Positions 6,658 to 57,820 of a stretch of DNA of 64,000 nucleotides are shown piece after piece; positions within the stretch are counted from its first letter, which is position 1; every line of letters begins with the position of its first letter. Below the pieces are notes generated by a model. The model had not been told where the DNA came from, ran no database searches, and saw only the letters and a program-made list of their open reading frames with translations. The stretch is from positions 32,617 to 96,616 of the forward strand of contig JAEHGX010000003.1 of assembly GCA_019248265.1 (NCBI GenBank). The letters are read 5' to 3'. Position numbers and translations under genes: made by a program. The DNA is from Candidatus Falkowbacteria bacterium S5_I03. Its GTDB lineage: Bacteria > Patescibacteriota > Patescibacteriia > Patescibacteriales > UBA12465.

Positions 6658-9600
6658 CTATCGACACTCTTCTTTATTTTTTAACATTATATCTTTTGCT
6701 TGCATAATATCTTCTTCGTTTATTGTTTTATATATTTTTTTATTAAGTTCAACTTCTTTATCTGGCGCTTTGTTAGATATATACTCTTTTCCATCTTTAT
6801 TAGCTTCCACAGCAGTTTTGAAGCTATCAAGCAAGTATTTATGCATATTTAACTTATCTTCTTTTGTAGATAATCCTAGAGCTTCTACAACCATGTCAAT
6901 TATCTTCTCAAACATACTTTTCTCAGCGCCAGTTATTAGATTACCTTCAACATCTATTTTCATTAAATCTTTAATTAGTTCTGGCTTACTTAATGCTTCA
7001 GCTAAGAATTCATCTACATCTTTAGCCCAATATGATTTATTAGTTGTAAACATCTCAGGATTAGCTTCAGCAGCTTGCTTAACCACTTCATATAGTCTAG
7101 TCATCTCTTCGCTATATGTTTTACCTTTTTCACTTCTCATATAGTTATAAACAGCAGCATGAACACTCTCATGTAACTTAGTTGTGAAATCTATATTTCT
7201 TTTATTTACTTCATCTATTATCATGTTTATTTGAGTTGATGCAGCCTTAATATCCAAAGCGCCAGTGTCTTGGTTTACTTGCTCAATTGATAACATTTTC
7301 ATCATCTCTTTATCATTTCTCAATCCATCAAAATCTGCTATCGTAACAACATTATCTTTCCAATCATAATTCCCAGCAATACCTTCACCAGTAAAGAAGT
7401 CATATGCTAATTGTTTACTGTAGTTCATTTCAAACTTAACATTATCTTGAATATACTCTAATAATTTAGCATTTTCTTTTTCAATATTCTCATCTTTTTT
7501 ATATTGTTCTAATACTTGCTGAACACTATTAACTTTTGTATCATTAACAGCATTTTCTTTTGCAACATATCCATTTAACTCTAATACTATCTCTAGCGCA
7601 TCAGTCAATGCACTTTTTGAACCATCATCTTGATCAACAAATCTCAATATTGCTTTAAACAGATTTTTAACATCTTCAAATAAACTTTTATTAGATGATA
7701 CACTTTCAAATCCAGATAAAAACTCTTGAAAAGATGGATTACTTATTGCTTCAGCTACAAATTCATATGCTTCACCTTTTTTATCAGATAATCCATATTG
7801 TTTTCTTTGCTCAACTGTAGAATTTTTATAAACATAATTTCTTAATTCATTAGCTTTTTTATCTAATGCTTTATTTTGTTTCATTGCATAAACAGTTATC
7901 GCATGAGCATATTCATGAAGCATAACTCTTTGTGTATTTTCAATTCCAAAATCTTTAGTTGATGGAAATGTTAATAGTTTTTTACCAGATGTATAAGCAC
8001 TATGCATACCATATCCATCAACTTCTTTATCTTGCTTAAACACAATTGTTATTGGATTGAACTTAATACCATTTTTACCAAACATTTCAAATAATCCATC
8101 TATATATTTAGATTCTTTAGCATCAATATTTTTACTTTTAGTCATATCTGCATATTCAGAAGCCAATTGTTTAAATTCTTCATATGTTTTAATTTCTTTT
8201 TGATATGGACTATTTTTAGATGCAGGATTTTTAAACTGAATTTTTCCATTTTTTAATCCATTTAGCATACTTGTTTCTGATACTATTTCAACAGGCTTAG
8301 TCTCTTTTTTTACAGATTCTTTCTTATCTGGCGCTTTGATAGTTAATTTAGTTCTATCTTCAGGCTCAACAACTTTACCGCCTTTAATTTCATACATACT
8401 TCCATCTAATCCAGCCATATGTCCAATCTTAGCATTAGATCCATATACTAATTTTCTACCGCTTTCAGCTACTTCATTTAACTCTCTCATTTCATCTAAT
8501 ATTGAATCAAATCTCTTAACTGGTTTGTTTTTTCCTGAACGCAAACCTTCAAGCTTATCTAAATCAACTCCAAGCTTTTTGGCATTATCTCTAACCCTTT
8601 CTAATGATTTTAAAATCTCTTTAGCTAAGCTATAATCTTTAGATATTTCATATACATCTTTGTTGTATTTAATAATTTCATCTTGAGCATTATTTATTCC
8701 AGTAAGCTTAGCATCATGCACTCCAAGAACTCCACCTTCTTCTAATGATTTAGTCATAGCTGAACCATCTATATAGTGAATTGGCACAACAGCTCCAGCA
8801 CTTATTGCAGCTTGAAACTCTCTAATCATTGACTGAACTGTTAATGTTTTTTGACCACCAAACTTATCAGGATTTACATGCGTCTGAGTAGGTCCATATC
8901 CACTTTTTGCATTTGTTAATCCAGTTGAGAATATAGCAACAGTTTCACCATCTTCCATATAGTTTTCACCAGCCAATGGAGCCTTAATCATAGGGAATAA
9001 TACTTTTAGTTCATCTAATATTTTATTTTCTTGATCAGCTGTCAATCCTTTTCCACCACTTACTTTTTCAACTCTAGCATCATATGCAACTTTCCAAGCT
9101 TGAAACATTATTTTGAATGAGTTATTGATTCTATTGTTAGCCTCTATAAGCTCTCCAAACTCTGCAGTTAATATCTGTTCAACATTTGATCCATATGTCA
9201 TCTCCACAATCTCTCTAAGTTTACCAGCTATAGCTACTTTACCAGATTTAACTTTCATTTCCTTACCAGTTTTATCTTTAACTGTTACATAATTATTTAT
9301 TTGAATATCTTCAAAAGCTGTATTTTTTAATGTTTCTTTAAATGCTTTAATCTCTTTCTCTTCTAACTCTTTACCATGAATGCTATTTATAAACTTATTA
9401 GCTTTCTTAACCGCTTCAGGAGACGAATCATCAAGCATCATCTTAGGTAATCCAGATATCATTTTATACCCAAGATGTCTTTTAATCGACTTAATAGCAG
9501 CTGCATATCCAAATGTCATAAACGGATCTTTAAACAATGACCTACCTTCGCTTGTAACAATATCTATAATCTCTGTTTTTAATCTATCTTCACCATCTTC

Positions 9601-12600
9601 ATCTTCTTTTGTACTACTATCTGGCGCTTCTGCAACTTCAACTTCTTTTTGATCTTTAATCTTAGGAAGAACTTCCTGTAAAGCTTTCCATCTTTCTTCG
9701 TTTTCTACTTCAACTTCAAAGCCAGTTACATCCATTCCTTGAGCCAATGTTCTATATGAATCTATTAATCTACCTTCTGATATCTCTTGCCCTGAGTTTG
9801 TAATAGCCATATAATTTTCATAATCTTTAATATCTGATGCATATTTTTGTTTATCTTCTTTAGACATTTTAGCTATTTGTTTTTTAGTTAGCTTTCCATC
9901 ATATAAAAACACTCCACCTTTAGATAACCATAATTTCATTTTTTCGAACGACATAATAGGTAATTGCAATAGTTTCAATATGAATCCACTTGTAATAGCA
10001 TCAAACTCTACAGATAATGATACTTCAAATGGTCTTTCACCATTTCCAGCTTTTTTATAAGCTCTAACTGCATTTAATCCTTGAAAGAAATGACCTAAGT
10101 GTTCAATCTCTACTTCATATTTTTTACCATCTTTTTTTATCTCAGCTTTATGCTTTTTATCTGTCAAAGCGCCAGTTAGTGTCTCTTCAGATTGTTCAAG
10201 AACAGCATCTGCAAAGTCATATATCTCTTGAGGTGTTTTCTTGTCTATTCCAAATCCAAACGCTTGAGCTATAGCAGTTTTAAAGTATTCTTGTTGTTTA
10301 TTTTTTTCAGCATCTGGACTATTGAAATCCATAATTTGTCTATGAGCTTTTAATGTAACAAGGAATCTATGTAACTTATCTGTCTGAGGATTTACAGTAA
10401 CTGAATCCATATAGAATCTTCCATTTTTACCAAAGAAATATTCAAAATACATCTCATTAGCTTCAGTAGCATCTTTACCAGCTACTTTATCATGCAATGA
10501 TATCAAATTATCATAACTTTCTTCAATCTCTCTATTTCTAGCTTCTGCACTTTCTCTATCATCGAATGCCATTTTCTCTAAATCATCTTCAGTTTTAAAT
10601 CCCATTATTGATAATGTTTGAGATCTATCTCTTTTCTCAAGCATCAAATCTACTGCTTCACTATTAACTTCATACGCTTCTTGTCTAATTTTATTTAATA
10701 CTTTAAAAGACTCATTAGCAGCTTTATTAACTTTACTATTTTTAACTTTATTATTCTTATCTTCTAATGTTTTAGGTTTTGTGAACATCGGACCTTTTGA
10801 ATTCTTCTCTAGCGCCAGTATTGATTGAACCATATCAACTTTTGCTAGAACTTCAGCTTTTAATACACTCATATCTGTTTTTTCTTTAACACTATATTTT
10901 TTACCAATAGCTGGTTTTTTTAATTGAACCATTGGAATTCTTTTAGATTTGCTGTCTTTATCTGTAGTTAAATCATTGAATTCTTTAGCTGCTTCTGCAT
11001 CTATTTCTTCTTGAGTTTTTGAGTTTTCATCTTCTATAAAATTACCATATTTATCTTTTTTTCTATTATCTATTCCAAGAGCTTTAGTATATGTATCAAT
11101 AGGAATAGTTGATTTGTTTAATGGCTCTATATATTCTTTTGCTTGCATATATAGCAATACCATTTGACCAGCATCTGATAACATCTTTGCATACAGTTCT
11201 GAATCTACACCTTCATATACTACTTTTTCACTACCATCTGCATTTTTACCAACTATCTTACTAGCTGGCGCTAATGATAAATTACTAAATGCAGCTTTAC
11301 CAAGATTATCAGCTATAAGCTTTTTAAATAAACCTTCATGTGCAAACGCTTTTTGAATATCAGGACTAACTTCATGTGGTTGTTTACCAAGCATAGCAGC
11401 AATAGCATCTTTATCATTATAAGCTAACTTAGAACTCATAAATGCATAATACTCATCTCCAGCTAACGCAAGAGCTACAGCTACATTTTCGTTAATTTCA
11501 GCCACACCATTGTCTGTCAACCTAAACAATAAACCTCTAAATAAACTATCTTTTGCTTTAAATTTTCTATTTGCTATATCATCATTAGGATCCGAAAGCA
11601 TCTTTTTGAATATGTCTACTGCATCGTCTTTGTATTTTAATATTTCTTTATTGTTAGTTATTTCACTTATAGGCATTCCTGATAATCTATTTTTTCCAAC
11701 TTTTGATGGTTGAACTATTTCGCTTACTCTAACTCTCTGGTATGCTCCACCATCTACTGAAACGGCATTCATATTTGATGATGTATTGTCTATAATATCT
11801 TTAATATAATCAGTACCAGTTAATTTATCTTGTAATAATTTAATCTCTTCTCTTATCTTGTCTCTATTTACTTTATTGCTTGTAGCTAATCTTTCAAACT
11901 GTGTAAACTTATCTTTCAGTTGAGAACCTGAATATTTCTTTCTAGCTTCATCACTATTTAAATATGCATATGCTCCTTTTTGAACTGCATAATCATATTT
12001 AATTTTATATTTTAATTCTTCAATTTTACTTTCTATAGCTTTTATTGCTTCAGATTTTTCAATTTTTTTACTTTCCAAAGCGCCAGTGTTAGAGTCTATA
12101 TCAAAATCTGAATATGTAATCTCAAAGTTGTCATTGAACTCTTTTATGTCATTCATTGTATCTTTATAGTTTATAGCACCACTTATATCTGTATCTCCAT
12201 AATCTATATCAGCATATGTTATTTCACCATTATCAGCAGGTTCTTTGTATGTTATAGGTTCCTTCTCTGCCGGCGCTTTGTTGATATCCTTAGGTTTCTC
12301 TTTTGGTAACATATCAAAATCAATATCACTTATATTCGAATCACCTATATTTTCATCGGACTTAATTTCTTCATCTGAATATGTTATTTTTTCATCTTTG
12401 TATGTAATATCTTCTAAACTTTTATCTACTGGCGCTTTATAAGTTATATCCTCTGGTGGCTTCTTGTCAACAGGAGGTTTTTTATCTTCTGGTTTTTTAA
12501 CTGTATTATCAATGTCAATATCATCTTTTTTATCAAGACTTGCTAATGTTATTCTATTTTTTTTATCTTGCTTAATTAATGTTTTAATTTCTTCAGGTAA

Positions 12601-15462
12601 ACCTTTAAGTTCATTATCATTAATAGTTTTACCAGTGTAGCTTGGCAACACTTTTTTAATAGCAACACTTGCTTTGTTTATTTCATTTAAAAGATTTTTT
12701 CTTTCATTTATTTTTGTAGATGATGATTCACTTGATCTTTTAAATCCTTCAATCTTTTGAGAAACTTCTTTAGCTGTTAATTCTGCAGCCTTAGCCATAG
12801 CGCCAGCTTCTTTTGCTACAGCACTTCTTATGCCGTATATTCCACCAGTTTTAACATCTTTGCCTAAGTTTTCATAAACATTTCTATAGTTTATTTCAAA
12901 TGTTTTACCTGATGGATATGTAAATTTCTCAGAATCAGCATTTATTCCTTTTATGTTTCCTTTAACTTTGCCGCCATTTAACTTGATATTTTTTCTTACT
13001 TCGGCTTCAACTTTAGCTATTGCTTTATCTAATGCTGATAATTTATTTTGTTGTGATTCTACAAACTTATCCATTTTTGATAGATTTTCATCTATCTTTT
13101 CTAAATTTTCTTCATTTATAGCATCTTCAACATTTTGTCTATATGTTAGATATCCTCTAGCGCCAGTTGATACTTCTTTTGATACATCGTTAATACTTTT
13201 TCTAATTTCTGATACAGCTACATATTCATCTTTGATGTCTTGTAGGGTTTCTTCATCTAATCCAGCATCTTTACCAGCTTTCATATAGTTTTTAACTATT
13301 AATTCGTCATTGAAATCTATCTCTCCAACAGCATTTCCTTCTTCATCTGTAATATCAAGCATTCTCTTGAACTTCTCTTTATTCTGCGGATCTGAAGCCA
13401 AGCTTTGCATTCTTGATGTGTTACCATTTTTAAGAACATCATCTCTTCTAGAAGCCATTAATGCAGTCAAGGCTCTATTGTTTGCTAAGACCTTACCGTA
13501 GATGATATCCTGTGTTTCTTCATCTATATTTTTACTTTTTGATGCATATAGTGATGCTTCTTTGATATCATCAAGCATTGAATCAACTTCTGAATCGGTT
13601 ATGTCTCCAGCAGTTATTCTAGCAGTAATATTATCCATTTTTGTATTATAGTTTGCAACATTTACTTTGGCAGCTTCAGCGTCTTCTTTAGCTACTATTT
13701 CATTTGGATTATCCATAACTATGTCTGATGTCTTATTCTTAATCTCTTTAGCTTTATTAACAGCTGAATCTTTTAATCCACCAAACTTTTCACCAATACT
13801 TTTTGAAGATTCAAATACAGCTTTAGGTAATATCTCAATTGCTGCAGCACCAGTTACGTCTCCAGCTACCCCAGCACCATATGCCTGGAACATCTTTCTA
13901 AATGTTTCATCTTCCAATAATTTTTCTTGCTCATCTGTTCCATATAATGCACCAAATTCTTCAATACCAGTCTGAATTGCTTCTGTAGTACCTCCAATAG
14001 CAACACCTTTTCCGATAGCTTCTCCAGTTTTTTTAGCAATAGTTTTCAATACTGTTTCAGTTGCTTCTTTGTTTTCACTTTTTAAAGCGCCAGATATTAA
14101 GTTATTTATAAACTGTGGTTTTGTAAATATTACTTTATCTGCAACTTTTTCTACTACAGCTGCTCCTAAAGCTAGTGGCATAATAGCCATTCTTTCTGCA
14201 TTTGATATATTTTCAACGCCACCAACAACTTTTGCTCTTTCCTCAAGTATATCATTTTGGAATATTGATGCAACAGCTATATAGCCTTTTTTAGACATTG
14301 ATGCAGCTATATATGCAGCACTTTCAGCTAAAAAAGGTAATCCAGCATTATAAACTCCTTCTATAACAGAAGAAGCCATATCTACAGCATCTCCTGAATC
14401 ATAAGCTTCTCCTAGCCTATTCATAGCTTTTTCTGTAGCTTCACCTTTGTATCCATATGTTTCTTTTTCTTTGTATTTGTCTAATAATTTAAAGTCCATA
14501 TTTTCATCAAACCAAGCTTTACTATTAGGCATATCTTCTTTCATGTATTTTACTGCTTCTTTTTCTGGCATATCTTTTATGCCTTTTGTTAGCTCAAGAG
14601 CTATTCTTCCAGCAGCATCAACAACAGCATCTCCGACATTTGCAGCAAATGATCCACCAGCATATTGTAATGCATCTGTTATTGTATCTTCTCCTGGCAT
14701 CTGTATGTTTTTACCATCAGTTGTTCCGTATTTTGAAGATATATTCTCCAACGCATCTTTAGCAGCAACTTGTTCAAATTTAGGCTTCTCATATCCTATA
14801 GACTCACCAATACCTTCCTTTGTATCTTTATTTCTAACATCTGTTAATGGTCTTCCAAAATGACCAAATTTTCCAGTATTTAATCTTTCAACTTCTATAT
14901 TTAATGGATATTCTTTGCTTCCAAGCTCAAGAGGTGTATTTTCATTTATAAAGTCTAATGGTCCAGGAGTCCATTCAGCTTTTTCACCAGGAATCATATT
15001 ATATAGCGCCATAAGCTTTTGCTCTGTTCCTTTTTGATATATCATATCATCTGTAACTTCATTTGGGTTTAAACCTAATTCTGATGCTAATCTAGCTCTT
15101 TGCATATCAAATTTTTTCTTTCCAGATTCAGTATTTTTATAATTATCACCAGGATGAGGAACTTCATATGCATCAAATCCTTCAATTCTATCTTCTGTTT
15201 CTTTTCCAGTTAAATCATATCTTTTACCAGTTAATTTATCTACTCCACCAAGACCACCAGTTGTTCCAATGAATTGAGGGCTATCTGCATCAGTCATACT
15301 CTCAAGCATAGTTGGAGTCCATACATTTAGGTTGTTTTGTGTTAAGTTTGTTTGTTGATTTTGTTGTTTAGTATCAGAATATCCAGAAAGTCTATCCTGT
15401 TTTTCTATTGTTTTATCACTTAGCGCCAGTATTTTATCTTCAAGTATTCCCATTGGGCACAT
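6658..15462 (-). CDS. N4-like virion-packaged RNA polymerase (vRNAP), 2,934 aa
   Basis: The T7-like motifs occur in the correct order. KNGRFY matches the xxGRxY motif. Motif A is VEFDAITSGF (D1821, 10000-10002). Motif B is RSLFKDPFMTFGYAA, which has exact R-x3-K-x7-Y spacing (K1978, 9529-9531). Motif C is GVLGVHDAKL (D2250, 8713-8715). The true start is probably the second ATG at 15453, because AAGGA lies 8 nt upstream of it. Confidence 0.8.
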   Translation of the reverse strand: MCPMGILEDKILALSDKTIEKQDRLSGYSDTKQQNQQTNLTQNNLNVWTPTMLESMTDADSPQFIGTTGGLGGVDKLTGKRYDLTGKETEDRIEGFDAYEVPHPGDNYKNTESGKKKFDMQRARLASELGLNPNEVTDDMIYQKGTEQKLMALYNMIPGEKAEWTPGPLDFINENTPLELGSKEYPLNIEVERLNTGKFGHFGRPLTDVRNKDTKEGIGESIGYEKPKFEQVAAKDALENISSKYGTTDGKNIQMPGEDTITDALQYAGGSFAANVGDAVVDAAGRIALELTKGIKDMPEKEAVKYMKEDMPNSKAWFDENMDFKLLDKYKEKETYGYKGEATEKAMNRLGEAYDSGDAVDMASSVIEGVYNAGLPFLAESAAYIAASMSKKGYIAVASIFQNDILEERAKVVGGVENISNAERMAIMPLALGAAVVEKVADKVIFTKPQFINNLISGALKSENKEATETVLKTIAKKTGEAIGKGVAIGGTTEAIQTGIEEFGALYGTDEQEKLLEDETFRKMFQAYGAGVAGDVTGAAAIEILPKAVFESSKSIGEKFGGLKDSAVNKAKEIKNKTSDIVMDNPNEIVAKEDAEAAKVNVANYNTKMDNITARITAGDITDSEVDSMLDDIKEASLYASKSKNIDEETQDIIYGKVLANNRALTALMASRRDDVLKNGNTSRMQSLASDPQNKEKFKRMLDITDEEGNAVGEIDFNDELIVKNYMKAGKDAGLDEETLQDIKDEYVAVSEIRKSINDVSKEVSTGARGYLTYRQNVEDAINEENLEKIDENLSKMDKFVESQQNKLSALDKAIAKVEAEVRKNIKLNGGKVKGNIKGINADSEKFTYPSGKTFEINYRNVYENLGKDVKTGGIYGIRSAVAKEAGAMAKAAELTAKEVSQKIEGFKRSSESSSTKINERKNLLNEINKASVAIKKVLPSYTGKTINDNELKGLPEEIKTLIKQDKKNRITLASLDKKDDIDIDNTVKKPEDKKPPVDKKPPEDITYKAPVDKSLEDITYKDEKITYSDEEIKSDENIGDSNISDIDFDMLPKEKPKDINKAPAEKEPITYKEPADNGEITYADIDYGDTDISGAINYKDTMNDIKEFNDNFEITYSDFDIDSNTGALESKKIEKSEAIKAIESKIEELKYKIKYDYAVQKGAYAYLNSDEARKKYSGSQLKDKFTQFERLATSNKVNRDKIREEIKLLQDKLTGTDYIKDIIDNTSSNMNAVSVDGGAYQRVRVSEIVQPSKVGKNRLSGMPISEITNNKEILKYKDDAVDIFKKMLSDPNDDIANRKFKAKDSLFRGLLFRLTDNGVAEINENVAVALALAGDEYYAFMSSKLAYNDKDAIAAMLGKQPHEVSPDIQKAFAHEGLFKKLIADNLGKAAFSNLSLAPASKIVGKNADGSEKVVYEGVDSELYAKMLSDAGQMVLLYMQAKEYIEPLNKSTIPIDTYTKALGIDNRKKDKYGNFIEDENSKTQEEIDAEAAKEFNDLTTDKDSKSKRIPMVQLKKPAIGKKYSVKEKTDMSVLKAEVLAKVDMVQSILALEKNSKGPMFTKPKTLEDKNNKVKNSKVNKAANESFKVLNKIRQEAYEVNSEAVDLMLEKRDRSQTLSIMGFKTEDDLEKMAFDDRESAEARNREIEESYDNLISLHDKVAGKDATEANEMYFEYFFGKNGRFYMDSVTVNPQTDKLHRFLVTLKAHRQIMDFNSPDAEKNKQQEYFKTAIAQAFGFGIDKKTPQEIYDFADAVLEQSEETLTGALTDKKHKAEIKKDGKKYEVEIEHLGHFFQGLNAVRAYKKAGNGERPFEVSLSVEFDAITSGFILKLLQLPIMSFEKMKLWLSKGGVFLYDGKLTKKQIAKMSKEDKQKYASDIKDYENYMAITNSGQEISEGRLIDSYRTLAQGMDVTGFEVEVENEERWKALQEVLPKIKDQKEVEVAEAPDSSTKEDEDGEDRLKTEIIDIVTSEGRSLFKDPFMTFGYAAAIKSIKRHLGYKMISGLPKMMLDDSSPEAVKKANKFINSIHGKELEEKEIKAFKETLKNTAFEDIQINNYVTVKDKTGKEMKVKSGKVAIAGKLREIVEMTYGSNVEQILTAEFGELIEANNRINNSFKIMFQAWKVAYDARVEKVSGGKGLTADQENKILDELKVLFPMIKAPLAGENYMEDGETVAIFSTGLTNAKSGYGPTQTHVNPDKFGGQKTLTVQSMIREFQAAISAGAVVPIHYIDGSAMTKSLEEGGVLGVHDAKLTGINNAQDEIIKYNKDVYEISKDYSLAKEILKSLERVRDNAKKLGVDLDKLEGLRSGKNKPVKRFDSILDEMRELNEVAESGRKLVYGSNAKIGHMAGLDGSMYEIKGGKVVEPEDRTKLTIKAPDKKESVKKETKPVEIVSETSMLNGLKNGKIQFKNPASKNSPYQKEIKTYEEFKQLASEYADMTKSKNIDAKESKYIDGLFEMFGKNGIKFNPITIVFKQDKEVDGYGMHSAYTSGKKLLTFPSTKDFGIENTQRVMLHEYAHAITVYAMKQNKALDKKANELRNYVYKNSTVEQRKQYGLSDKKGEAYEFVAEAISNPSFQEFLSGFESVSSNKSLFEDVKNLFKAILRFVDQDDGSKSALTDALEIVLELNGYVAKENAVNDTKVNSVQQVLEQYKKDENIEKENAKLLEYIQDNVKFEMNYSKQLAYDFFTGEGIAGNYDWKDNVVTIADFDGLRNDKEMMKMLSIEQVNQDTGALDIKAASTQINMIIDEVNKRNIDFTTKLHESVHAAVYNYMRSEKGKTYSEEMTRLYEVVKQAAEANPEMFTTNKSYWAKDVDEFLAEALSKPELIKDLMKIDVEGNLITGAEKSMFEKIIDMVVEALGLSTKEDKLNMHKYLLDSFKTAVEANKDGKEYISNKAPDKEVELNKKIYKTINEEDIMQAKDIMLKNKEECR

Positions 15463-20371: not shown

Positions 20372-20372
20372 T

Positions 20373-21773: not shown

Positions 21774-21774
21774 T

Positions 21775-33744: not shown

Positions 33745-34464
33745 TTATTTAGTGAACTTTAGATTTGCACATTCTGCTAATGTCATTCTCATGAATACCG
33801 ATAATTCTTTTCCTTCTGTTTTTAAAGTCTGGTAATACCATTCTTTACCAGCTTGTGTTTTTATTTGTGCATCTGGATTCCATCCATGATCATCATTTCT
33901 AGTAGCATTCTCTTCTAATCTTTTAAGATATGCATATATTGCTGATATCTTATTAGTTTGAGTTTCTTTGCCATTTGAACCAACTATTGTTACGCATCCA
34001 CCTTGAAACAATGGTTCTATGAACTCATTTCTTTCTGTATATATGTACCTAGCATTTTTTAATAGTGTATGGCTAACGCTCCATGCCTTTGCAAGACCAA
34101 TTATACTTTTAGCTTTATTCTTAGGATTGAATGTTTCCTTACAAGCACTTATAAGCTTCTGAGTTGGAGAAAGATTTCTTCTTGTATTAAATGATTTTAC
34201 AACAACCATAACATCTTCTTCTGTAAGATCATCATCAAGCTCTTTTGCCTTAATTCTTACTCCTGTAGCTAAGCATGCTTTTTGTCTACATCTACCATCT
34301 ACTATTTTATTTCTCCATAATATAACTGGCTCTCTTAATCCATTTTCTCTTATATCTTCTGTTAGAGCTGCTTGCTCAGCCATGTTAGCCATAGGAACTA
34401 TTCCTGCTAGTTCTTCGTTTACTTCAAACGCTTCACCTTCTCTTAGCTCAATATATCTTGTCAT
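33745..34464 (-). CDS. ParB-like nuclease-domain protein
   Basis: NGLREPVILWRNKIVDGRCRQKA matches the ParB/Srx N-terminal motif (P..V......DG..R..A). Confidence 0.6.
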   Translation of the reverse strand: MTRYIELREGEAFEVNEELAGIVPMANMAEQAALTEDIRENGLREPVILWRNKIVDGRCRQKACLATGVRIKAKELDDDLTEEDVMVVVKSFNTRRNLSPTQKLISACKETFNPKNKAKSIIGLAKAWSVSHTLLKNARYIYTERNEFIEPLFQGGCVTIVGSNGKETQTNKISAIYAYLKRLEENATRNDDHGWNPDAQIKTQAGKEWYYQTLKTEGKELSVFMRMTLAECANLKFTK

Positions 34465-34868: not shown

Positions 34869-35082
34869 TTCACAGACTTAGAGCTGACTTAAGAAAGTCT
34901 TTTTGTTGTCCGATATTTTTTAATGAGTATGCCATGAAATCGAACATCTGTATTTTTGATTAAAATATTTATTTATTGATGTTTTTTGAAAAAAGGACAC
35001 ATATGTCTTTTTTTTATATATATTAATATATATTATATGGATAGTCTTTTTTTATTTTAATAAACCAAAAAAACCCAAACCC

Positions 35083-35174
35083 CTACAACCACCGCTCGGA
35101 AACGCAGCACGGGAAATTGCGTAGCGTAGCGTAGCAATTTGACTAGTGCAAGTGCAACGAGAAGGTGGTTGTAG
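35083..35174. other. GC-rich structured element A (candidate ncRNA or terminator)
   Basis: The 11-bp outer stem is CTACAACCACC / GGTGGTTGTAG. The inner stem AAATTGC/GCAATTT encloses GTAGC x3. It shares CACCGCTC..GAAA with elements B and C. On the minus strand it is followed by GGGTTTGGGTTTTTTTGG. Confidence 0.5.
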
Positions 35175-35277
35175 CATCAGCACGAAGTAGCGAAAAAAAG
35201 AAACATTGGATTTATTCTCAATAGAGCCAGTTAGGGATGGTACCTATGACACTATTATCTGGCGCTAGAGATAAATT

Positions 35278-35784
35278 TTAATTAATCTTTTTAGAACATG
35301 CTTCTTTATACATAAGCTCTTCTCTTTCCCAGTTATCTTGAGATACTACTAATCTTGGATTTATTATGTAGCATCCTCTTTTGTATCTAACAACAAGATC
35401 TTTTTCTCTTAGTGTTTTGTATGCTATTTTTATGTATTTCTTTTCTGTCTCAGTAAGAGTTGAATTATCAATATGTGTTATATTTGATTTTTTATAACCA
35501 AACTCATCAACATTATTTCTATTTTTCATTAACAATTTAAACATAAAACCTTCAGGTTTTGTCATATTTAAAAGCTCTTCTGTGTAATCCATACTGTGTG
35601 CCCTACTTTCTTTATTTTTGTTTCCACTTCCTACCATTATGAACGATGGCTTCATTTTTCCATCATTTTCAACTACTAGCTTCTTTCCAGCAGGAAGAAC
35701 TATTTGATGAGTCTTCATCATTTCATCTGATTCTAAGATTCTATCCTGTATAATCTTATTATCAATTGAGGCAATCTTCTCCAT
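35278..35784 (-). CDS. hypothetical 168-aa protein with a putative DNA-binding domain shared with ORF 121..780
   Basis: KKYIKIAYKTLREKDLVVRYKRGCYIINPRLVV aligns by eye with KKGMAKSYKNLVDMNILIRIKRNVYMINPNFII of the HNH fusion protein. Confidence 0.5.
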   Translation of the reverse strand: MEKIASIDNKIIQDRILESDEMMKTHQIVLPAGKKLVVENDGKMKPSFIMVGSGNKNKESRAHSMDYTEELLNMTKPEGFMFKLLMKNRNNVDEFGYKKSNITHIDNSTLTETEKKYIKIAYKTLREKDLVVRYKRGCYIINPRLVVSQDNWEREELMYKEACSKKIN

Positions 35785-36054
35785 TGTCTCTCCTTTTTAT
35801 TTATTTAATCATCAAACTTTCTTATTGTACACAATCTAAGCTTAAAGATAGGTGAACGAATCACCCCCTTATCTCACTCGATAAGGTACTAAATCACCCC
35901 CTTATCTATTTAAATAAACATCGAGTTTATCGAGACTATTTGATTTTTCCTTCTATAAGAATTATATAGGAAGCTTTTCTTAGCGCCAGCTAGAGATGCT
36001 GATTGTATTTTCGTTTTGATTTTTTTGTCCAGACTGGACGGTTTTATACTCATG

Positions 36055-36146
36055 TAAGCCAGCTTTGTGCACCGCTCTCGAAAATTTTTTACTACGCACT
36101 CCGTGCTTCGTAAAATAATTTTCTCGTTTGCGCCCATGCTGGCTTA
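36055..36146. other. GC-rich structured element B (candidate ncRNA or DNA cruciform)
   Basis: The 9-bp outer stem is TAAGCCAGC / GCTGGCTTA. Conserved blocks are TGCACCGCTCTC (36068-36079) and TCGTTTGCGC (36124-36133). Inner stems are GAAAATT/AATTTTC, TTTTAC/GTAAAA and GCAC-tcc-GTGC. Confidence 0.6.
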
Positions 36147-44799: not shown

Positions 44800-47700
44800 T
44801 CAATATGAATCATATGCACTATATTCTTCATCACTGTGTCTATTTATCATTCCATATATATCATCTGCTGCAACTTTACCATCTTTAATTTTTGTAGGTA
44901 TATATGACATATTCTTAGCTGGATAAATCACTTCTAATGCATTTATCATTGATAATAAGTCCATACCATCATCATGCTTACAGTTATGGATAACCATATT
45001 ATTTGAAGAAAAGTTATTTGTTCCTTTTACTTCAAAATCATAAACTGGTTCTATTTTTCTCTTTTCTATTTTTATTATTAAACTTGTACTTGCAACTATT
45101 TGAGCAATACTTGAATTTTGTAGTCTTTTCAATAAATTCTTTTCCACATTCTCTGCATGTGCATCTTGCAGTGAGCTTGTTTCTATCAATATCTCCACAT
45201 TCTTTTGAGCAAAACTTTCGTGAAGAGCTTCTAATTGTTTCAAATTCATTGTTGCACGACAAGCACAATCGAAACTCAACTTTACTTCTTCTGTTTTTTT
45301 CAGTATGTATTTTTCCGCACTCTTCTGAACAGCATATTTGATTTGCTGATTTTTGTTCAAATTCAGAATTGCATACAACACATTGCTTTGTAGTAAGTTC
45401 AGAATAGTTCTCATTTTTTTGAAGTTTACTGTGTTTTCCTCTGCATGATTCGCTACAGAATTTTGTTTCATTTTTAGCTTTATCATTGATTTCAAACTTA
45501 CAATTACAGTACGGACAAATCCTATTTTTGTCTCTGTTTTTTCTTTTTTCTTCTCTTTTTGAACTTTCATAATCTCTTCTTTGTTCTCTATTGTGCCAGT
45601 GTTTTTTTCCTCCAACATGCATAAGCTGATGATCTTCAGGCGATAATATTTCAAGATTAGAAGGTTCGTTATTGTCTTTATTTTCATCTTTATGATGAAC
45701 TTCATATCCTTTTTTAATTTCTCCATTTTCTCTTTCATATATTTCACGATGAAGCCATTTTCTTTTTCCATTAATTGATGTTGTTGATTGATAATATCCA
45801 CTTTTTTGTCTTGTCCATTTGTATCCATATTTGATAATTTGCATTCTATATTCCTAATTATTAAGTCAGTAGACGTCAAATCTTTTACCATAACATATCC
45901 TCTCATGGTTAGAACCTTATGCTCAGCAGTAAGGTGCATCTCTCCATCAATTGTTGTTATAGTATAGGTTTGTTCTACTCCTGTAATTATAGGATTACTT
46001 GCCTTAGAGTTTACTGACGTATAGCCATTTTGTGTCAAAACACTATCATTATGTCTTATGTCGCTCATCATTATTTTTCCATTTGGAGTATCAACAAGCG
46101 TGTCTCCACTAACACAGTTGAATCTTGTATAGCTTGTATATCTAATTTCATCCATTAATTCAACCATATCAGGACTATGTCTCAATTCTTCAGGGAAGAA
46201 TATTTTTCTATTCTGAAACATTGGTAACATCATTCTCATTCTCCAATGTTTGCTTCCACCTTCAAGTCTTGATAATATTCCCTCAGCGCCAGGTTGAGAG
46301 CCTCTTTGTCTAGCAATAGTGAAATAATTCATTCTTTGTCTCATTCTATCTTTTAAGGCATGTATATGTGGTCTCTGATTACCATCAACCTCTACACCAA
46401 CTTCAAATGTTTTATTCTCTGGAGTGTATGTGTCTACAAACCTAAACACTTCATTGTACTGTTGCTCTGTTTCTTGCCTTCGAAGACATAAATCTAACAT
46501 AAACCAGTCCTGATTATGATTTACAGCCCACACAGCTATACCACTTAAATCTGAACCTTTATTACCAGTTGTTGTAAAGTCTGTAGTCATATATAAATTA
46601 TATGCATATAAGTTTTTTAATATATCTGTACGCTTATACCATTGGCTTTCAAGCAATTTATCAGGAATCAATTTATCTTCCTCTGAGCTAATTCTAAGCA
46701 TTAACTCTTGCATGAACTCTCTTAGCGTATCTCCATAATAAGCATCTTCATATTTCTCCATAATTGCTTCAAAAGGCTTCATAGCTTCCCATGAACCACG
46801 GTATTCACTCTTAGGCATGTCTAAATATATCTTTTCACATACTGGTAAGCAAACAGGTGTCCAAACTCCACCCTCAAGCGCAGCATAAACTGGATCTTTT
46901 TTATTAAATGGCGTATTAACAATTATAATTTTACCTTTTTTACCTAGTGCATTCTCTGCATCTGAGTAAATCATAGACTTTAACTTAGCCATAATAATAG
47001 CTGAACCAGCATCTGCTTCGTTCTTTATAATATCATCGAAAGTAAAGCAGTTTTTAGACCTACCAAATGCCGTAATATAGGTACTTTTTGGCTCATTTCC
47101 TCTTGTTCTATCTTTGATTGTTATTGGCACAACTTTTAAATCTTTAACTTCATTTGATTCTTTAAACTGTCTCCACAACATTCCATCTTTTATATGTACT
47201 TGTTTAAAGTGTACTTTCTTGCTAGCCGATACATCTATTCCTAAAACTTCTTTTACATTCTCTACTAATCTTAATTCCCATTGATGATTTATATCGTGTT
47301 CTCTTCCAGTTGATGTGAACACTTGCTTTCCAGCTTTTTTAGTATTTCTAATATATGTTGGTAACCCAAGCCTGCTACATATAACTTGCAATTGCTTTAA
47401 AACATTTAGATTTACACTGTTTATTCTAACCTGTTGAGAAGTTTTTTTGTTATCTATGTATCCATCTGCTGCTATATACCCAAGCAATATTTGCTTTTGT
47501 TTTTCAAAATCTAACTTTAATATCCAATCTGGCATATTCTTAATACTATTTCCATTTTTGTGTGATGCTAACCATCTTGCTATTGCTGAATGATTTGCTA
47601 TGTATAAATCACATCCAGCTCCTTTTACAGTACTTACTCCTTTATTGTACTTACTAAAGAACTCTTTTATTTTTTCTGCTATTTTTGGCTGAGTATGTGC

Positions 47701-48999
47701 AACACTCCATCCAAAACTATTATATTTGTATATTCCTTCTTTATGTTTGTTTTTACCATGAATTTGACCATCCCCAAGCCATAATCCATATAACCACCAC
47801 CATTCATTATCATTGAAATATTCTGGAACTTTATATTCAGGAACATATTCTGTATTTACTATCGAACCATTTTCTCTTCTTTCTGTTATATTGCTAATAA
47901 GATGCTCTATTGCTTTGACATCTTCAACTCTATAATCTATAGGACTTCCTAGCCAATGTCTTCTTGTTATGTTTTTAGCTTCGCACCATTCTGGCGCTTC
48001 TTCAATATAATTTTTAACTAATCTCTTTTCAGATTTACTCCATATCTGATCATTTGTACATTTTTTTGTCCAATATTTATGATCTTTTGTAACTCTTTCT
48101 GATTCAGTTAATCCAAATAATTTTATTTCTAATCCATCTTCTATATGTACACCATGATTAAACGGATATTCTTCAACTCTCATTATTCCTAAATCTGTTT
48201 CAATTATTGTTCCAACTTCATGACATTGAGGTCTCTCAGTTTTATACCTAATACCCCTTACTGACCCACCAGCTGCTCCTTTAACCTTAAACATGAAGCA
48301 TCTTTTCTTAATAGGTAATGGATTTTTTGGATCATCTTTTCTAATGAACTCACATTCTTCATCAGTAAACCTCATTTTCTCGAAATAGTCTTTGCAGAAC
48401 AAACTATCTTCGCATATATCTCTAATCGTATTTGCTTGTACTTTAGCTCCAGCTTGTTGTGAATCTCCAAATGAAACCCAGAACATTACATCACCAAAAT
48501 TTGGCATCTTACCAGTTATAGCTGTAACAATTGGCATAAATGCAGTAATTATTGTAGATTTTGCAGAAAAACGACTAGCGATAATAGCTATTTTTTTGCT
48601 ATTTAATCTAATTTTTTCGTTAATTTCTTGGCTATATGGAAAATTTTCTCTCTTGATGTTTCCATAAACAAGGTCAACAAGGAAGTAATGCATTAATGCA
48701 TTATCTGTCTCAAAATCTTCTCCATAAACAAGCCTCATAATATTGAAAAACTCTATTGCATCTCTACTTGGTGTGTATCCATTAAATGTTAAATCTATAC
48801 AATCTAATGCTTTATCAACATTAAACTCATATCGTTCATGTTTTTTAGGAATTATCTCTTTTGGAGCTTCTTCTATTCCTTCCTCTACAGCTTTTTCATA
48901 AGCTTTCCAGTTTTCATAGGCAATACTATCGTCACCTTCAATCTCTGGACTCACATTTGGATTAATTATCTCTATTTCTGGCGCTTTGCTAGTTTCCAT
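44800..48999 (-). CDS. terL: terminase large subunit precursor interrupted by two inteins (1,399 aa; about 629 aa after splicing)
   Basis: A Walker-A-like segment IIASRFSAKST lies at aa 141-149. After removal of intein 1 the junction reads RGIRYKTERPQ-CFTFDDI (Walker B-like hhhhDD). After removal of intein 2 it reads TRFN-CKHDDGMD (nuclease acidic motif). Confidence 0.75.
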   Translation of the reverse strand: METSKAPEIEIINPNVSPEIEGDDSIAYENWKAYEKAVEEGIEEAPKEIIPKKHERYEFNVDKALDCIDLTFNGYTPSRDAIEFFNIMRLVYGEDFETDNALMHYFLVDLVYGNIKRENFPYSQEINEKIRLNSKKIAIIASRFSAKSTIITAFMPIVTAITGKMPNFGDVMFWVSFGDSQQAGAKVQANTIRDICEDSLFCKDYFEKMRFTDEECEFIRKDDPKNPLPIKKRCFMFKVKGAAGGSVRGIRYKTERPQCHEVGTIIETDLGIMRVEEYPFNHGVHIEDGLEIKLFGLTESERVTKDHKYWTKKCTNDQIWSKSEKRLVKNYIEEAPEWCEAKNITRRHWLGSPIDYRVEDVKAIEHLISNITERRENGSIVNTEYVPEYKVPEYFNDNEWWWLYGLWLGDGQIHGKNKHKEGIYKYNSFGWSVAHTQPKIAEKIKEFFSKYNKGVSTVKGAGCDLYIANHSAIARWLASHKNGNSIKNMPDWILKLDFEKQKQILLGYIAADGYIDNKKTSQQVRINSVNLNVLKQLQVICSRLGLPTYIRNTKKAGKQVFTSTGREHDINHQWELRLVENVKEVLGIDVSASKKVHFKQVHIKDGMLWRQFKESNEVKDLKVVPITIKDRTRGNEPKSTYITAFGRSKNCFTFDDIIKNEADAGSAIIMAKLKSMIYSDAENALGKKGKIIIVNTPFNKKDPVYAALEGGVWTPVCLPVCEKIYLDMPKSEYRGSWEAMKPFEAIMEKYEDAYYGDTLREFMQELMLRISSEEDKLIPDKLLESQWYKRTDILKNLYAYNLYMTTDFTTTGNKGSDLSGIAVWAVNHNQDWFMLDLCLRRQETEQQYNEVFRFVDTYTPENKTFEVGVEVDGNQRPHIHALKDRMRQRMNYFTIARQRGSQPGAEGILSRLEGGSKHWRMRMMLPMFQNRKIFFPEELRHSPDMVELMDEIRYTSYTRFNCVSGDTLVDTPNGKIMMSDIRHNDSVLTQNGYTSVNSKASNPIITGVEQTYTITTIDGEMHLTAEHKVLTMRGYVMVKDLTSTDLIIRNIECKLSNMDTNGQDKKVDIINQQHQLMEKENGFIVKYMKEKMEKLKKDMKFIIKMKIKTITNLLILKYYRLKIISLCMLEEKNTGTIENKEEIMKVQKEKKKEKTETKIGFVRTVIVSLKSMIKLKMKQNSVANHAEENTVNFKKMRTILNLLQSNVLYAILNLNKNQQIKYAVQKSAEKYILKKTEEVKLSFDCACRATMNLKQLEALHESFAQKNVEILIETSSLQDAHAENVEKNLLKRLQNSSIAQIVASTSLIIKIEKRKIEPVYDFEVKGTNNFSSNNMVIHNCKHDDGMDLLSMINALEVIYPAKNMSYIPTKIKDGKVAADDIYGMINRHSDEEYSAYDSY
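44983..46116 (-). mobile_element. intein 2 (378 aa), mini-intein splicing blocks flanking an invaded insert
   Basis: It starts at Cys962 (CVSGDTLVDTPNG) and has block B TAEH. Blocks F/G read VYDFEVKGTNNFSSNNMVIHN, followed by the +1 Cys1340. Confidence 0.75.
45038..45844 (-). CDS. HNH endonuclease with four CxxC...C..C zinc-ribbon repeats, nested in intein 2 in a different reading frame
   Basis: The HNH core is YEVHHKDENKDNNEPSNLEILSPEDHQLMH. The repeats are CPYCNCKFE..FCSESC, CVVCNSEFE..CCSEEC, CLSCNNEFE..FCSKEC and CRECGKEFIE..YCSNSC. The frame offset from terL is 2 nt, since (48999-45844) mod 3 = 2. Confidence 0.7.
   Translation of the reverse strand: MQIIKYGYKWTRQKSGYYQSTTSINGKRKWLHREIYERENGEIKKGYEVHHKDENKDNNEPSNLEILSPEDHQLMHVGGKKHWHNREQRRDYESSKREEKRKNRDKNRICPYCNCKFEINDKAKNETKFCSESCRGKHSKLQKNENYSELTTKQCVVCNSEFEQKSANQICCSEECGKIHTEKNRRSKVEFRLCLSCNNEFETIRSSSRKFCSKECGDIDRNKLTARCTCRECGKEFIEKTTKFKYCSNSCKYKFNNKNRKEKNRTSL
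47050..48225 (-). mobile_element. intein 1 (392 aa) with a LAGLIDADG homing endonuclease
   Basis: It starts with Cys259 (CHEVGT) and has block B TKDH. LAGLIDADG motifs are LYGLWLGDG and LLGYIAADGY. It ends ...GRSKN followed by the +1 Cys651. The penultimate His is absent. Confidence 0.7.
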
Positions 49000-50379: not shown

Positions 50380-50381
50380 CA

Positions 50382-50639: not shown

Positions 50640-51002
50640 CTAAGCGCCAGATAAGTATGACCATAGAGCATCACAGCATTCTTTATATAATGAACAAGTT
50701 GTATATGCTCTATATTCATCACATTCAAAATCATGAGCTTCCATAATAAATGTAACAGCATGAACAACTTCATGTAGCAATGTAAGCTTTACATCATCTA
50801 TATTATCTTTCTTCTTTAATCCAATAATCAACTTTCTATATCCATCTACTTCATAGTAGAACGATGTGCATTGTCCAGTTGTTGCTGGACTTATTCTACA
50901 TTCCAAGTTGTACTTCTCTAGCATCTTCCTGTAATCTTTTAATCCATAACACAGTATCAATTCATCGTACATCAAATGTTTTAACTTTATCTTCTTTATC
51001 AT
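50640..51002 (-). CDS. small HExxH metallopeptidase-like protein (120 aa)
   Basis: LTLLHEVVHAVTFIME (HEVVH at 50760-50774) has the same HE..HA context as the modules in the two giant virion proteins. Confidence 0.45.
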   Translation of the reverse strand: MIKKIKLKHLMYDELILCYGLKDYRKMLEKYNLECRISPATTGQCTSFYYEVDGYRKLIIGLKKKDNIDDVKLTLLHEVVHAVTFIMEAHDFECDEYRAYTTCSLYKECCDALWSYLSGA

Positions 51003-51047
51003 TTTATTTTCCTATTTATTTTTTCTATACTGCGTATAGTGCTTATG

Positions 51048-51124
51048 TTGCACACTTTACTGCACCGCTCTCCAAAATGCTCGCTGTCGCTCGACATTTT
51101 GTCGTTTGCGCAGCCAGTGTGCAA
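51048..51124. other. GC-rich structured element C (paralogue of element B)
   Basis: The 9-bp outer stem is TTGCACACT / AGTGTGCAA. Conserved blocks TGCACCGCTCTC (51061-51072) and TCGTTTGCGC (51102-51111) lie at the same 4-nt distance from the stem as in B. The inner stem is CAAAATG/CATTTTG. Confidence 0.6.
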
Positions 51125-55960: not shown

Positions 55961-57820
55961 ATGACAACAAAAGAACGAATAGCTTACCAAATTAGCTTAG
56001 GAAAGTTATCTATGCCTAGAATAAACAATCTTGAATCTAAGTTTGGATCAACAGTGTACAAAGAGATAGAAGCAATGTTTGAAGCAATGTTTCATACATA
56101 TCTAAAGAAAGGTGCTCATATCAAACCTAATGTAGAGCCAGCACACACAGTTGCAATGCCATATTGGGCTAAGCGAATCAAAAACCCAAAAGCTCATAAT
56201 CTGGCGCTTAAGGTACTATCTAAGAATAACTGGATAGTAGTATCAACAAGACCAGGTAACAATTGGTCATCTGCATATTTAAATGAAGCAAAATTATTAG
56301 AATATGTTACTAGAGAAGTACTTGATAATGTAAGAATGCATAATAAATTCTTTGATTATAAGCTATCTAATACTGTATCTGTATCAAGCACTAAAGTTAC
56401 TCAAAATGGTAATAAACTTGACTCAGGTTTAATCAGAAATGGATTTATGAAAACAGGTAATACAGAGTTTGCATTCAATACAAACCAAATCAACGAGAAC
56501 TTTGAAGATGTACTAAAAGAAATCAACAAAGGTATCGAGAAAATGATAGTTAAATATCCTCAAATCGCTACAGACCACGCTAATTATAGAGAACTAGGTA
56601 CAGAAATTCTTCAGTATCTATCAATAGAAGACGCAACTTATACTTCAGGAGAAAGAGCATCAGACTTCAGAGGTAGAAACATAGCTGGTATGCTGTCTAG
56701 AATAGGTAATCCAATAGGCTTTAAAGTTATGAGAAGCATGTTAGTTATACCTGAACAATACAGAAATATAGCTACAGATAAAGGTTTAAGAAACAAGCAT
56801 CTATTCATAGCTGAATTATGTGGATTCAAAGTAGGAACAACATTTCAGAAAGTTGCATTTGGAATCAAATGTTATACTCAAAGAACAATGACTCATTGCT
56901 TTGTAGAGAATTTATGGCTGGAAAACACTTACGAAGACATAGATAACTACTACAATAATGTAGGTACATACAAATGGAAATTTGCCATTGAAATAGATGT
57001 AAGCGCCAGTGTATTAGCAGTGATAGGACTATTATTAAATCACAAACCATTTATGGAAAGATGTAATGTTTTACCAGGTATTCTAGGTGATGCATGGGGT
57101 CATGAAATAATTACTAATAGACCTCAGTGCAAAACAATCATGCGAAAAATTTATGGATCTCAAATGACAGCTGCAGCAATGTGGACTGAAATGGATATTG
57201 AATTCACTCAGCAAGAAGTTGAAGCATTTGACTATGATGTTGAATTCGGAGAGTTTGCAGTAGCTAATAGACTTAAAGACTTCATTATAGACAATTCAGT
57301 TATGAAACCATCTATGTCAGTTAGAGTAGGTTCTGAGACGGTTAAATTCAATTGTAATAAGTTCCATATCGTTGGAGACAAAACAACTGTTTATGACTTA
57401 TATGACTCATATAATGACTCAATTAGAAGAATTCACAATACAAGTACAGTTAAAGTTCCAGACCTTAAATCATTCAAAAGAGTTGGTCCAACTACATTAG
57501 TTCATGGACTAGATTCGCAGTGCGCAGATAACACAGCTGATGCAGTAATAAACCAATACAACTGGTGCTTAGACATTCATGATGCATTTATATTGTGTGC
57601 AGAAGCAGCAGACTATGCAAGAGAGATATACAGTTATGGTAGAACACCAAACGAACCATCATTGAAGTTCATTAATGATAATAGAACATCAATCTTATGT
57701 AATTTCTTCACAGATATGGGTATCGGAGCATCTAAAGTAGCAGAGTTCAAAAGAGAGGTTCTAGCATTCGTAGAACCACTAACAGAGAAACTAGTAATTA
57801 ATCCACTAGTTTTAAAATAA
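55961..57820 (+). CDS. compact T7-like single-subunit RNA polymerase (619 aa; N4 RNAPII-like role)
   Basis: DFRGR lies at D235 (56663-56677). Motif A is AIEIDVSAS (D346, 56996-56998). Motif B is RPQCKTIMRKIYGS, spaced R-x3-K-x6-YG. Motif C is LDIHDAFIL (57578-57583). Confidence 0.75.
   Translation: MTTKERIAYQISLGKLSMPRINNLESKFGSTVYKEIEAMFEAMFHTYLKKGAHIKPNVEPAHTVAMPYWAKRIKNPKAHNLALKVLSKNNWIVVSTRPGNNWSSAYLNEAKLLEYVTREVLDNVRMHNKFFDYKLSNTVSVSSTKVTQNGNKLDSGLIRNGFMKTGNTEFAFNTNQINENFEDVLKEINKGIEKMIVKYPQIATDHANYRELGTEILQYLSIEDATYTSGERASDFRGRNIAGMLSRIGNPIGFKVMRSMLVIPEQYRNIATDKGLRNKHLFIAELCGFKVGTTFQKVAFGIKCYTQRTMTHCFVENLWLENTYEDIDNYYNNVGTYKWKFAIEIDVSASVLAVIGLLLNHKPFMERCNVLPGILGDAWGHEIITNRPQCKTIMRKIYGSQMTAAAMWTEMDIEFTQQEVEAFDYDVEFGEFAVANRLKDFIIDNSVMKPSMSVRVGSETVKFNCNKFHIVGDKTTVYDLYDSYNDSIRRIHNTSTVKVPDLKSFKRVGPTTLVHGLDSQCADNTADAVINQYNWCLDIHDAFILCAEAADYAREIYSYGRTPNEPSLKFINDNRTSILCNFFTDMGIGASKVAEFKREVLAFVEPLTEKLVINPLVLK

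Follow-up and report, generated by a model that had tools for sequence, protein, structure and literature searches.

The textbook example of an RNA polymerase that reads hairpins in DNA comes from the N4-like phages, and to our knowledge little has been described of N4-like promoters and terminators beyond N4 itself and a few Pseudomonas phages. The promoters of the N4 virion RNA polymerase (vRNAP) are template-strand hairpins with stems of 5-7 bp and a 3-nt loop that carries a purine at -11, and they need -10G, -8G, a G:C loop-closing pair, +1C and four A's as a ruler (PMC4496689). Transcription starts 11 nt from the hairpin centre in N4 and 13-14 nt from it in LUZ7 (PMC4496689, PMC9163698). 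The early and middle promoters of LUZ7 have hairpin stems with a minimum of 4 or 6 bp and the start 13-14 or ~15 nt from the centre, and in both LUZ7 and LIT1 antisense transcription runs across the late genes (PMC9163698). T4-like phages carry PeSLs, composite terminator/promoter motifs located at the borders of indels (PMC2839356, PMC4122927).

The DNA analysed here, a stretch of 64,000 nucleotides referred to as a whole as the window, is phage DNA of 31% G+C in which portal, major head protein and terminase are recognisable. Genes between ~2.3 and 52.0 kb lie mostly on the minus strand and the remainder on the plus strand. The vRNAP of this phage is split in two, since matches to the N4 virion RNA polymerase family are given by two adjacent minus-strand ORFs, 2289..6629 (1446 aa) and 6658..15462 (2934 aa). 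The large terminase (44800..48999, minus strand, 1399 aa) is probably interrupted by an intein, as its recorded Pfam matches include LAGLIDADG and intein-splicing domains; a sister assembly has a 1368-aa version with no recorded intein or LAGLIDADG match. A block of two genes (142 aa and 244 aa) is present as a tandem duplicate at 19943-21107 and 21345-22509, with identical internal inverted repeats, and two small plus-strand genes at 50188-50627, within the minus-strand block, converge on gene 50640..51002 (g50640) with almost no spacer. Counting both strands, there are 84 occurrences of the 8-mer AGCGCCAG/CTGGCGCT, in genes as well as between them (for example at 35981-35989, 36224-36232 and 20275-20283), compared with ~0.2 expected from base composition. 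In 22 kb of the related phage L003, AGAGCCAG is present 22 times instead. The word has the look of an uptake sequence, a Chi-like site or a modification site whose sequence has moved by one base from one relative to the other. The phage is present in near-identical form in many assemblies of one NCBI series (GCA_0192479xx-0192485xx), one of which is titled 'Candidatus Shapirobacteria bacterium S2_F12' (L031) and is a GTDB species representative. Either the phage infects that candidate-phyla-radiation lineage or co-sorted phage particles contaminate the bins.

Two intergenic regions of the window hold the elements B and C (Table 1), for which the first-pass annotation of this DNA had reported identical 12-nt and 10-nt blocks set between fully compensated stems of unrelated sequence. 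The two sequences are exactly as claimed. On the plus strand B reads TAAGCCAGC-TTTG-TGCACCGCTCTC-GAAAATT-(30 nt)-AATTTTC-TCGTTTGCGC-CCAT-GCTGGCTTA and C reads TTGCACACT-TTAC-TGCACCGCTCTC-CAAAATG-(15 nt)-CATTTTG-TCGTTTGCGC-AGCC-AGTGTGCAA, the exact 12-mer TGCACCGCTCTC and the exact 10-mer TCGTTTGCGC each occurring within the 64 kb only in these two elements. The outer and middle stems of C are unrelated to those of B, its apical part is short, and its sequence is identical across six near-identical assemblies. Both elements fold better as the minus strand, the sense strand of the genes at these loci, and 0 of 200 dinucleotide shuffles gave a fold as good as that of either minus strand (z-scores in Table 1). 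In the minus-strand fold of B a 9-bp outer stem is followed by a middle stem GCGC/GUGC containing a G.U, an internal loop AAA/AGCG and, further in, a C-G pair, tandem GA/GA, an A/U-rich inner stem and a variable apical hairpin. The shared blocks had been taken to be unpaired and to form an asymmetric internal loop. Such a loop is indeed present, if small (3x4), but the blocks are not wholly unpaired, since they contribute GCGC/GUGC, the C-G pair and likely tandem G.A. The small hairpins that had been noted next to the elements, GTCCA-gac-TGGAC (36027-36039) and CTATAC-tgc-GTATAG (51025-51039), are present as well, each with a T-run before it on the plus strand, and the 3' arm of the small hairpin of B doubles as the -35-like hexamer of a sigma-70-like match, TGGACA-18-TACAAT.

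Table 1. Positions, strands and predicted fold energies of the elements and their parts. Positions are those of the window unless a contig is named; energies are given as folded strand / other strand in kcal/mol.
Feature	Position	Strand	RNA fold	DNA fold	Description
Element B	36055..36146	-	-37.8 / -34.0	-24.0 / -19.2	Large bipartite hairpin; MFE -37.8 kcal/mol, z -5.8; orthologue in L009 with compensatory changes
B spacer, large to small hairpin	36040..36054	-			CAUGAGUAUAAAACC; CAUAAGC-like in C, D, F
B small hairpin	36027..36039	-			GUCCA-guc-UGGAC; identical in L009
B A-tract	36014..36026	-			AAAAAAAUCAAAA; first pyrimidine 14 nt from loop centre
Element C	51048..51124	-	-36.9 / -26.6	-19.1 / -16.2	Large bipartite hairpin, architecture as B; MFE -36.9 kcal/mol, z -5.5
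C small hairpin	51025..51039	-			CUAUAC-gca-GUAUAG
C A-tract, AGGA ribosome-binding site and spacer	51003..51024	-			AAAAAAUAAAUAGGAAAAUAAA, then AUG of gene 50640..51002
Copy D	L068 7951-8042	-	-31.8 / -29.0	-20.7 / -17.3	~0.8 kb left of window position 1; found with model R2
Copy E	L066 19627-19721	-	-38.3 / -30.1	-24.0 / -18.3	~9 kb right of window end; found with model R2
Copy F	L068 6710-6795	+	-39.2 / -29.4	-19.1 / -15.7	~2 kb left of window position 1; found with model R2
Orthologue of B in L009			-40.4 / -30.1		
Copy in L014			-38.1 / -30.7		
Element A	35083..35175	-			Long GC-rich multi-loop hairpin; 8-mer GAGCGGUG on 3' side

A covariance model trained on just B and C (R1), the search that had been proposed together with the elements, reached relatives both close and distant. 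It identified an orthologue of B in L009, a metagenome contig with a 94%-identical portal, where a G-C pair of the outer stem is replaced by U-A in a compensatory change, and, at E = 1e-4 to 1e-6, a much diverged (type-2) element in three phages whose portals are 68-72% identical (L001, L002/L003, L014). The type-2 copies are syntenic; downstream of each come an A-like hairpin, a hairpin/iteron array and the genes for a ParB-like protein and for the portal. With a second covariance model (R2) we searched the genome of the same phage beyond the window, reached via the window's first and last genes, and found three more copies, D, E and F. B and C had been presented as a pair, but the genome of this phage has at least five copies, plus the looser relative A. 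Four of the five share one absolute orientation, with a flip between F and D. Orthologues of both D and F, with positions and orientations kept, are present in L075, which has the RepL-like neighbour in common with this phage (66% identity).

Megablast and blastn against GenBank phages gave zero matches, exact and degenerate pattern scans of IMG/VR for the window-type core gave 0 matches, and a looser pattern returned the type-2 copies already known and L073 only, a sequence without the stems that the covariance model rejects. When C was sought near ParB2 homologues (47-73% identity) no element was found there; relatives have three extra small genes between ParB2 and the g50640 homologue and no C, and in a 97% relative the contig stops short of the C locus. 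No copies were found in relatives with a portal identity of <=44%, and no partner element was found left of E or right of g50640. The long, strand-specific hairpins to which B and C belong are a family that had not been described before.

Element A does not match the covariance models of the B/C family. It has in common with B and C an 8-mer, GAGCGGTG / GAGCGGUG, that is limited within the window to these three elements, with three occurrences compared with 0.13 expected. On the minus strand A is followed by a G-rich/U-run tail at 35060-35082 and for this reason appears terminator-like for gene 35278..35784 (g35278). Upstream of the ParB-like gene 33745..34464, at 34690-34870, lies an array of short palindromes in three sets that differ in their half-sites (GGTACC, GGTATC and GGTGTC). 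Each palindrome has a 6-bp stem and a 3-nt AAT/ATT loop, and behind each the minus strand carries an A-run, the plus strand a T-run. The type-2 phages have an analogous AGAGACA/TGTCTCT array. These palindromes could be hairpin promoters, iterons or ParB sites.

An alignment of 11 sequences, representing ~7 independent lineages (a small sample, all within one narrow phage clade), confirmed that the elements have a functional-looking structure with real covariation, as the first-pass annotation had put forward on the basis of two. Homologues beyond B and C and covariation in a larger set, the absence of which would have told against the elements, are both present. Standard pairs fill 93.2% of the cells, a value that carries a bias toward the structure as the alignment was fitted to the model, and 19 of the 23 pairs are changed on both sides. 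The covariation score is 0.836, compared with 0.216 in shuffles, and 0 of 500 shuffles reach it; sliding the 3' partner by 1-3 columns as a control left only 34-50% of the cells paired. Two points speak against an artefact: the outer stems are unrelated between copies and pair (near-)perfectly nonetheless, and RNAfold returns the same fold for each single sequence. The conserved columns are a closing C-G (U-A in one copy), an adjacent G.U (G.G in type-2 copies), a 3x4 internal loop (5' strand AAN, 3' strand WGCN), one covarying pair that changes from C-G to G-C, and GA on both strands beside the inner stem, whereas the apical part varies in length and sequence among the copies.

This pattern also bears on whether the elements might be a selfish or decaying repeat of the MITE or REP type without a function of its own. 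Multiple intergenic copies in both orientations are what such a repeat would leave, but here compensatory changes keep the pairing across lineages, and copies keep their place and direction in phages that share 66% identity in the flanking protein. It is the ends, moreover, that vary and the interior that stays constant, opposite to the pattern of a MITE, and we rejected a MITE on this ground. We regard a functionless repeat as very improbable.

Known RNA families do not account for the elements. Rfam 15 gave 0 matches at the gathering threshold for the whole window, nothing better than E = 3 for the B region at permissive E-values and 0 matches at E <= 1 for the D/F region; for the type-2 region there were sub-threshold matches to miRNA families only, the best at E = 0.068 and far below the gathering score, which we took as noise. 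The initial impression that the elements match no recognised RNA family was thus borne out by the searches of all these regions, and tRNA and tmRNA searches found none. Hammerhead, hairpin ribozyme, sarcin-ricin, SRP domain IV, bulge-helix-bulge and boxA/nut motifs were compared by eye and misfit the conserved columns. In a kink-turn the tandem G.A lies directly beside a 3-nt bulge and the opposite strand has no unpaired bases. The elements do have a tandem GA, but with a Watson-Crick pair between it and the loop, and 4 nt are unpaired on the opposite strand, so that this motif was rejected, too. A canonical intrinsic terminator was likewise discarded for B and C, whose large hairpins have no U-tract on either strand.

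The strand that reads GCAAACGA...GAGAGCGG, the minus strand of the window for B and C, folds better than its complement in every copy (Table 1). The structure is strand-specific, because the non-Watson-Crick cells on the folded strand comprise 9 G.U, 9 G.A and 3 G.G, compared with a single C.A. RNA and DNA parameters favour the same strand, so that the folded molecule may be RNA or DNA.

Each copy is part of a cassette of ~130-150 nt that is present in multiple copies, all of them intergenic. On the folded strand it begins with a G-poor, C/A-rich flank (AUCC...CCAUU-like), continues with the large hairpin and CAUAAGC (CAUGAG in B), and ends with a small hairpin of 4-6 bp followed on its 3' side by an A-tract of the AAAAAAUAAAUAGG or AAAAAAAUCAAAC type. 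The stems of the small hairpins (GUCCA, CUAUAC, AUCU, UAUAC, CUACU, UCUAC) all differ and pair nevertheless, the loops are GCA, GUC or AGUCA, and the first pyrimidine after the A-tract is located 14-15 nt from the loop centre in 6/6 copies with a small hairpin. In the type-2 copies there is no convincing small hairpin, the scan giving only a 3-bp AAA/TTT stem, and in the L075 orthologue of D (D_L075) the small hairpin is degenerate. A genome-wide scan for a hairpin plus A-run with 4-bp stems was too permissive for statistics at 31% G+C. In C, F and the L075 orthologue of F (F_L075) a ribosome-binding site and the ATG of the next gene follow 22-30 nt past the small hairpin.

B, C, F and all type-2 copies have the same direction as the genes beside them, and their large hairpin starts 12-32 nt past the upstream stop codon. 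D and E are antisense to flanking plus-strand genes, with no plausible ORF downstream in the element's own direction. The late gene block (minus) contains copies, and so does the early/middle block (plus). This placement is relevant for an mRNA cis-element, that is an intercistronic or 3'-UTR hairpin that is cut in the manner of the T7 R sites by an RNase III-type enzyme, or that protects a 3' end, the fixed loop directing a single cleavage or binding a protein. In T7, RNase III sites such as R1.1 have a lower and an upper stem with an asymmetric internal loop between them and resemble the element; their loop sequences are common to the sites and their lower stems differ, as in the family described here. 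The architecture of the element, with lower stem, asymmetric internal loop, upper stem and a total of ~20 or more bp, would by analogy be compatible with such a site. Like the T7 sites the elements are intercistronic, B, C, F and the type-2 copies following the stop codon of a co-directional gene, and the RNA fold of the sense strand is strongly favoured, including the conserved G.U and tandem G.A. However, there is no sequence similarity to the T7 sites, the distance from apical loop to internal loop varies widely among the copies, and D, E and D_L075 have the same conserved blocks while being antisense to flanking genes (two of the loci in this genome, as opposed to T7), which would be workable only given antisense transcripts. 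An mRNA element is conceivable, but on balance rather unlikely.

The elements could instead be stand-alone genes for small non-coding RNAs of ~100-150 nt, encoded on the GCAAACGA...GAGAGCGG strand regardless of the neighbours, with the fixed loop binding a phage or host protein. The orientation is in fact independent of the flanking genes while being conserved between phages, the flanks are conserved on both sides, and strand asymmetry and a complex structure with two internal loops would suit such an RNA. Yet that strand has no recognisable promoter upstream and no terminator downstream, an A-tract rather than a U-tract follows, and in C and F the ribosome-binding site of the next gene comes immediately. 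Small RNA genes are a doubtful explanation.

U-tracts are found at other places. The large hairpins of B, C, E and F have none after them on the folded strand, and in a terminator scan at B only the small hairpin scored, on the plus strand. A hairpin with a U-tract is present in D and D_L075 on the plus strand and in element A on the minus strand: on the opposite strand D is followed by GGGUGAGGGUUGUUUUUGUUUU and D_L075 by GGGGUGGGUAGUUUUUU, which makes this strand a good predicted intrinsic terminator for the plus-strand genes. Each tail is located just before the operator-rich promoter region of a 194-aa gene, the direct neighbour of D, which has no Pfam match and has a short IINP-type motif in common with g35278. 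The latter, next to B, has a sub-threshold RepL match (E = 0.008), as has a 219-aa gene (L068 8885-9544) that is second from D (E = 0.024). Together with the IINP motif and a BLASTP E of 0.2 for the pair of g35278 and the 194-aa protein, these matches are only suggestive of paralogy between the genes beside B and D. The operator-rich region before the 194-aa gene is similar to that upstream of g35278, where two direct repeats of GATAAGGGGGTGATT are located at 35840-35905.

The copies are located at mosaic junctions, the borders of blocks of genes that related phages have exchanged. Homology between the window and L009 sets in at the 5' edge of B, with ~92% identity from there on, and upstream of this point the two are unrelated. 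In the three type-2 phages the upstream flanks of the element are unrelated to one another. F and D point towards each other, with four small genes between them in this phage and two genes unrelated to these in L075. Such borders might be expected of a single-stranded DNA or cruciform signal for replication, packaging or cassette exchange, for instance a priming site or an attC-like recombination site. DNA parameters favour the same strand as RNA parameters, 4/5 copies have one absolute orientation with the flip between F and D, and the copies border cassettes with exchanged content and adjoin RepL-like and ParB-like genes as well as hairpin or iteron arrays. As in attC, the structure is conserved and the sequence variable, folding is strand-specific, the terminal part varies and the site lies just after the cassette genes. 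On the other hand, the conserved part is interior and unpaired here, in place of the outer R boxes of attC, orientations are mixed, F and D being mutually inverted unlike integron cassettes, and five origins or priming sites per genome would be unusual. The stems lack the attC core motifs (RYYYAAC/GTTRRRY), and no integrase, HUH or other recombinase domain is among the Pfam matches recorded for the called genes; an integron attC was rejected since there are neither R''/R' core sites nor an integrase domain among these matches. A DNA signal of this kind strikes us as improbable.

The reading that we put forward, tentatively and at less than even chances, is that of a composite transcription-punctuation cassette of a phage that reads single-stranded hairpins with its own single-subunit RNA polymerases. 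The large hairpin would end or insulate transcription coming from upstream and would perhaps also be a docking site for a factor that recognises the fixed loop, while the small hairpin and its tract would restart transcription in the direction of the cassette. The restart would feed the next gene at B, C and F and would give an antisense transcript at D and E. As it would be self-contained, the cassette could mark the borders of exchanged gene blocks. We infer the promoter, terminator and factor-binding activity of the cassette, and likewise the RNA or DNA nature of the folded molecule, from sequence.

A punctuation cassette agrees with the covarying, strand-specific structure, the fixed geometry, the start of the large hairpin shortly past a stop codon at B, C and F, the ribosome-binding site and ATG beyond the small hairpin in C, F and F_L075, the terminator-like tails of D and D_L075, the junction positions and the orientation of D and F, which is conserved in L075, and by analogy it would fit the use of hairpin promoters by N4-like phages for both phage polymerases (PMC9163698, PMC4496689). 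Several points count against it. The large hairpins of B, C, E and F are not canonical terminators, because no U-tract follows them on the folded strand; several bases that N4 vRNAP requires do not occur in the small hairpins; a clear small hairpin is lacking in the type-2 copies, and D_L075 has a degenerate one; for transcription in the cassette direction the stable large hairpin would form on the non-template strand; and the fixed AAN/WGCN, the tandem GA and the G.U are left unexplained.

The fixed loop is given a role in a further reading, which we consider unlikely, namely an elaborate strand-specific hairpin signal whose loop would be read by the divergent split vRNAP (polymerase domain in ORF 6658..15462), the second phage polymerase, for which 55961..57820 is the candidate, or an ssDNA-binding cofactor, and which, coupled to the hairpin promoter, would define and mobilise gene cassettes. 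This would be a new single-stranded signal in an N4-like lineage that comes from single-cell assemblies labelled as a candidate-phyla-radiation bacterium. The family is a concrete candidate for how a divergent N4-like phage punctuates its transcription and perhaps swaps genes. If the loop is a binding site for a protein or polymerase, it would constitute a new recognition motif; should the element be no more than a hairpin in mRNA, it would still be a new, well-supported structured RNA family for Rfam.

Compared with the promoters of N4 and LUZ7, the small hairpins belong to the same phage group, the window encoding a virion RNA polymerase, and they have short stems that vary so long as they pair, loops of mostly 3 nt and a homopolymer 'ruler' that leads from the hairpin to a fixed point 14-15 nt off the loop centre. 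The stem and loop measure 5 bp and 3 nt in B and F and 6 bp and 3 nt in C; the stem of D has only 4 bp, and the loop measures 5 nt in E and F_L075. If the plus-type strand is taken as the template, the loop sequences are GAC (B), TGC (C, D, F) and TGACT (E), with A or G at the centre in each case. The proposal in the first-pass annotation that these hairpins are N4-type promoters is consequently plausible in its geometry, i.e. covarying stems, a purine at the loop centre and a spacing close to the 13-14 nt of LUZ7, and the ribosome-binding site and ATG that come next in C, F and F_L075 speak for it, but it does not hold for most of the N4-specific bases. The -10G is present in B only and replaced by T in C, D and F; at -8 there is C in B and A in C in place of G; and in most copies -10G, -8G, the G:C closing pair and an A4 ruler with +1C are absent. 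The ruler on the template is a T-tract here rather than an A-tract, and the small hairpins are not clustered before early genes, nor is their position an early-gene region. Each small hairpin is furthermore coupled to a structured hairpin of 77-92 nt, which has no counterpart in N4 or LUZ7.

The PeSLs of T4-like phages resemble the family in another respect, as they, too, are short repeated intergenic cassettes with a stem-loop at the borders of blocks that differ between close relatives. Phage family and sequence are unrelated, and no sigma-70 early promoter is evident here. The sequence of PeSLs is kept and serves homologous recombination, whereas in the present family the stems are unrelated and only 22 nt of loop sequence are held in common. 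By analogy, PeSLs may thus be regarded as a functional parallel for the junction positions of the cassette.
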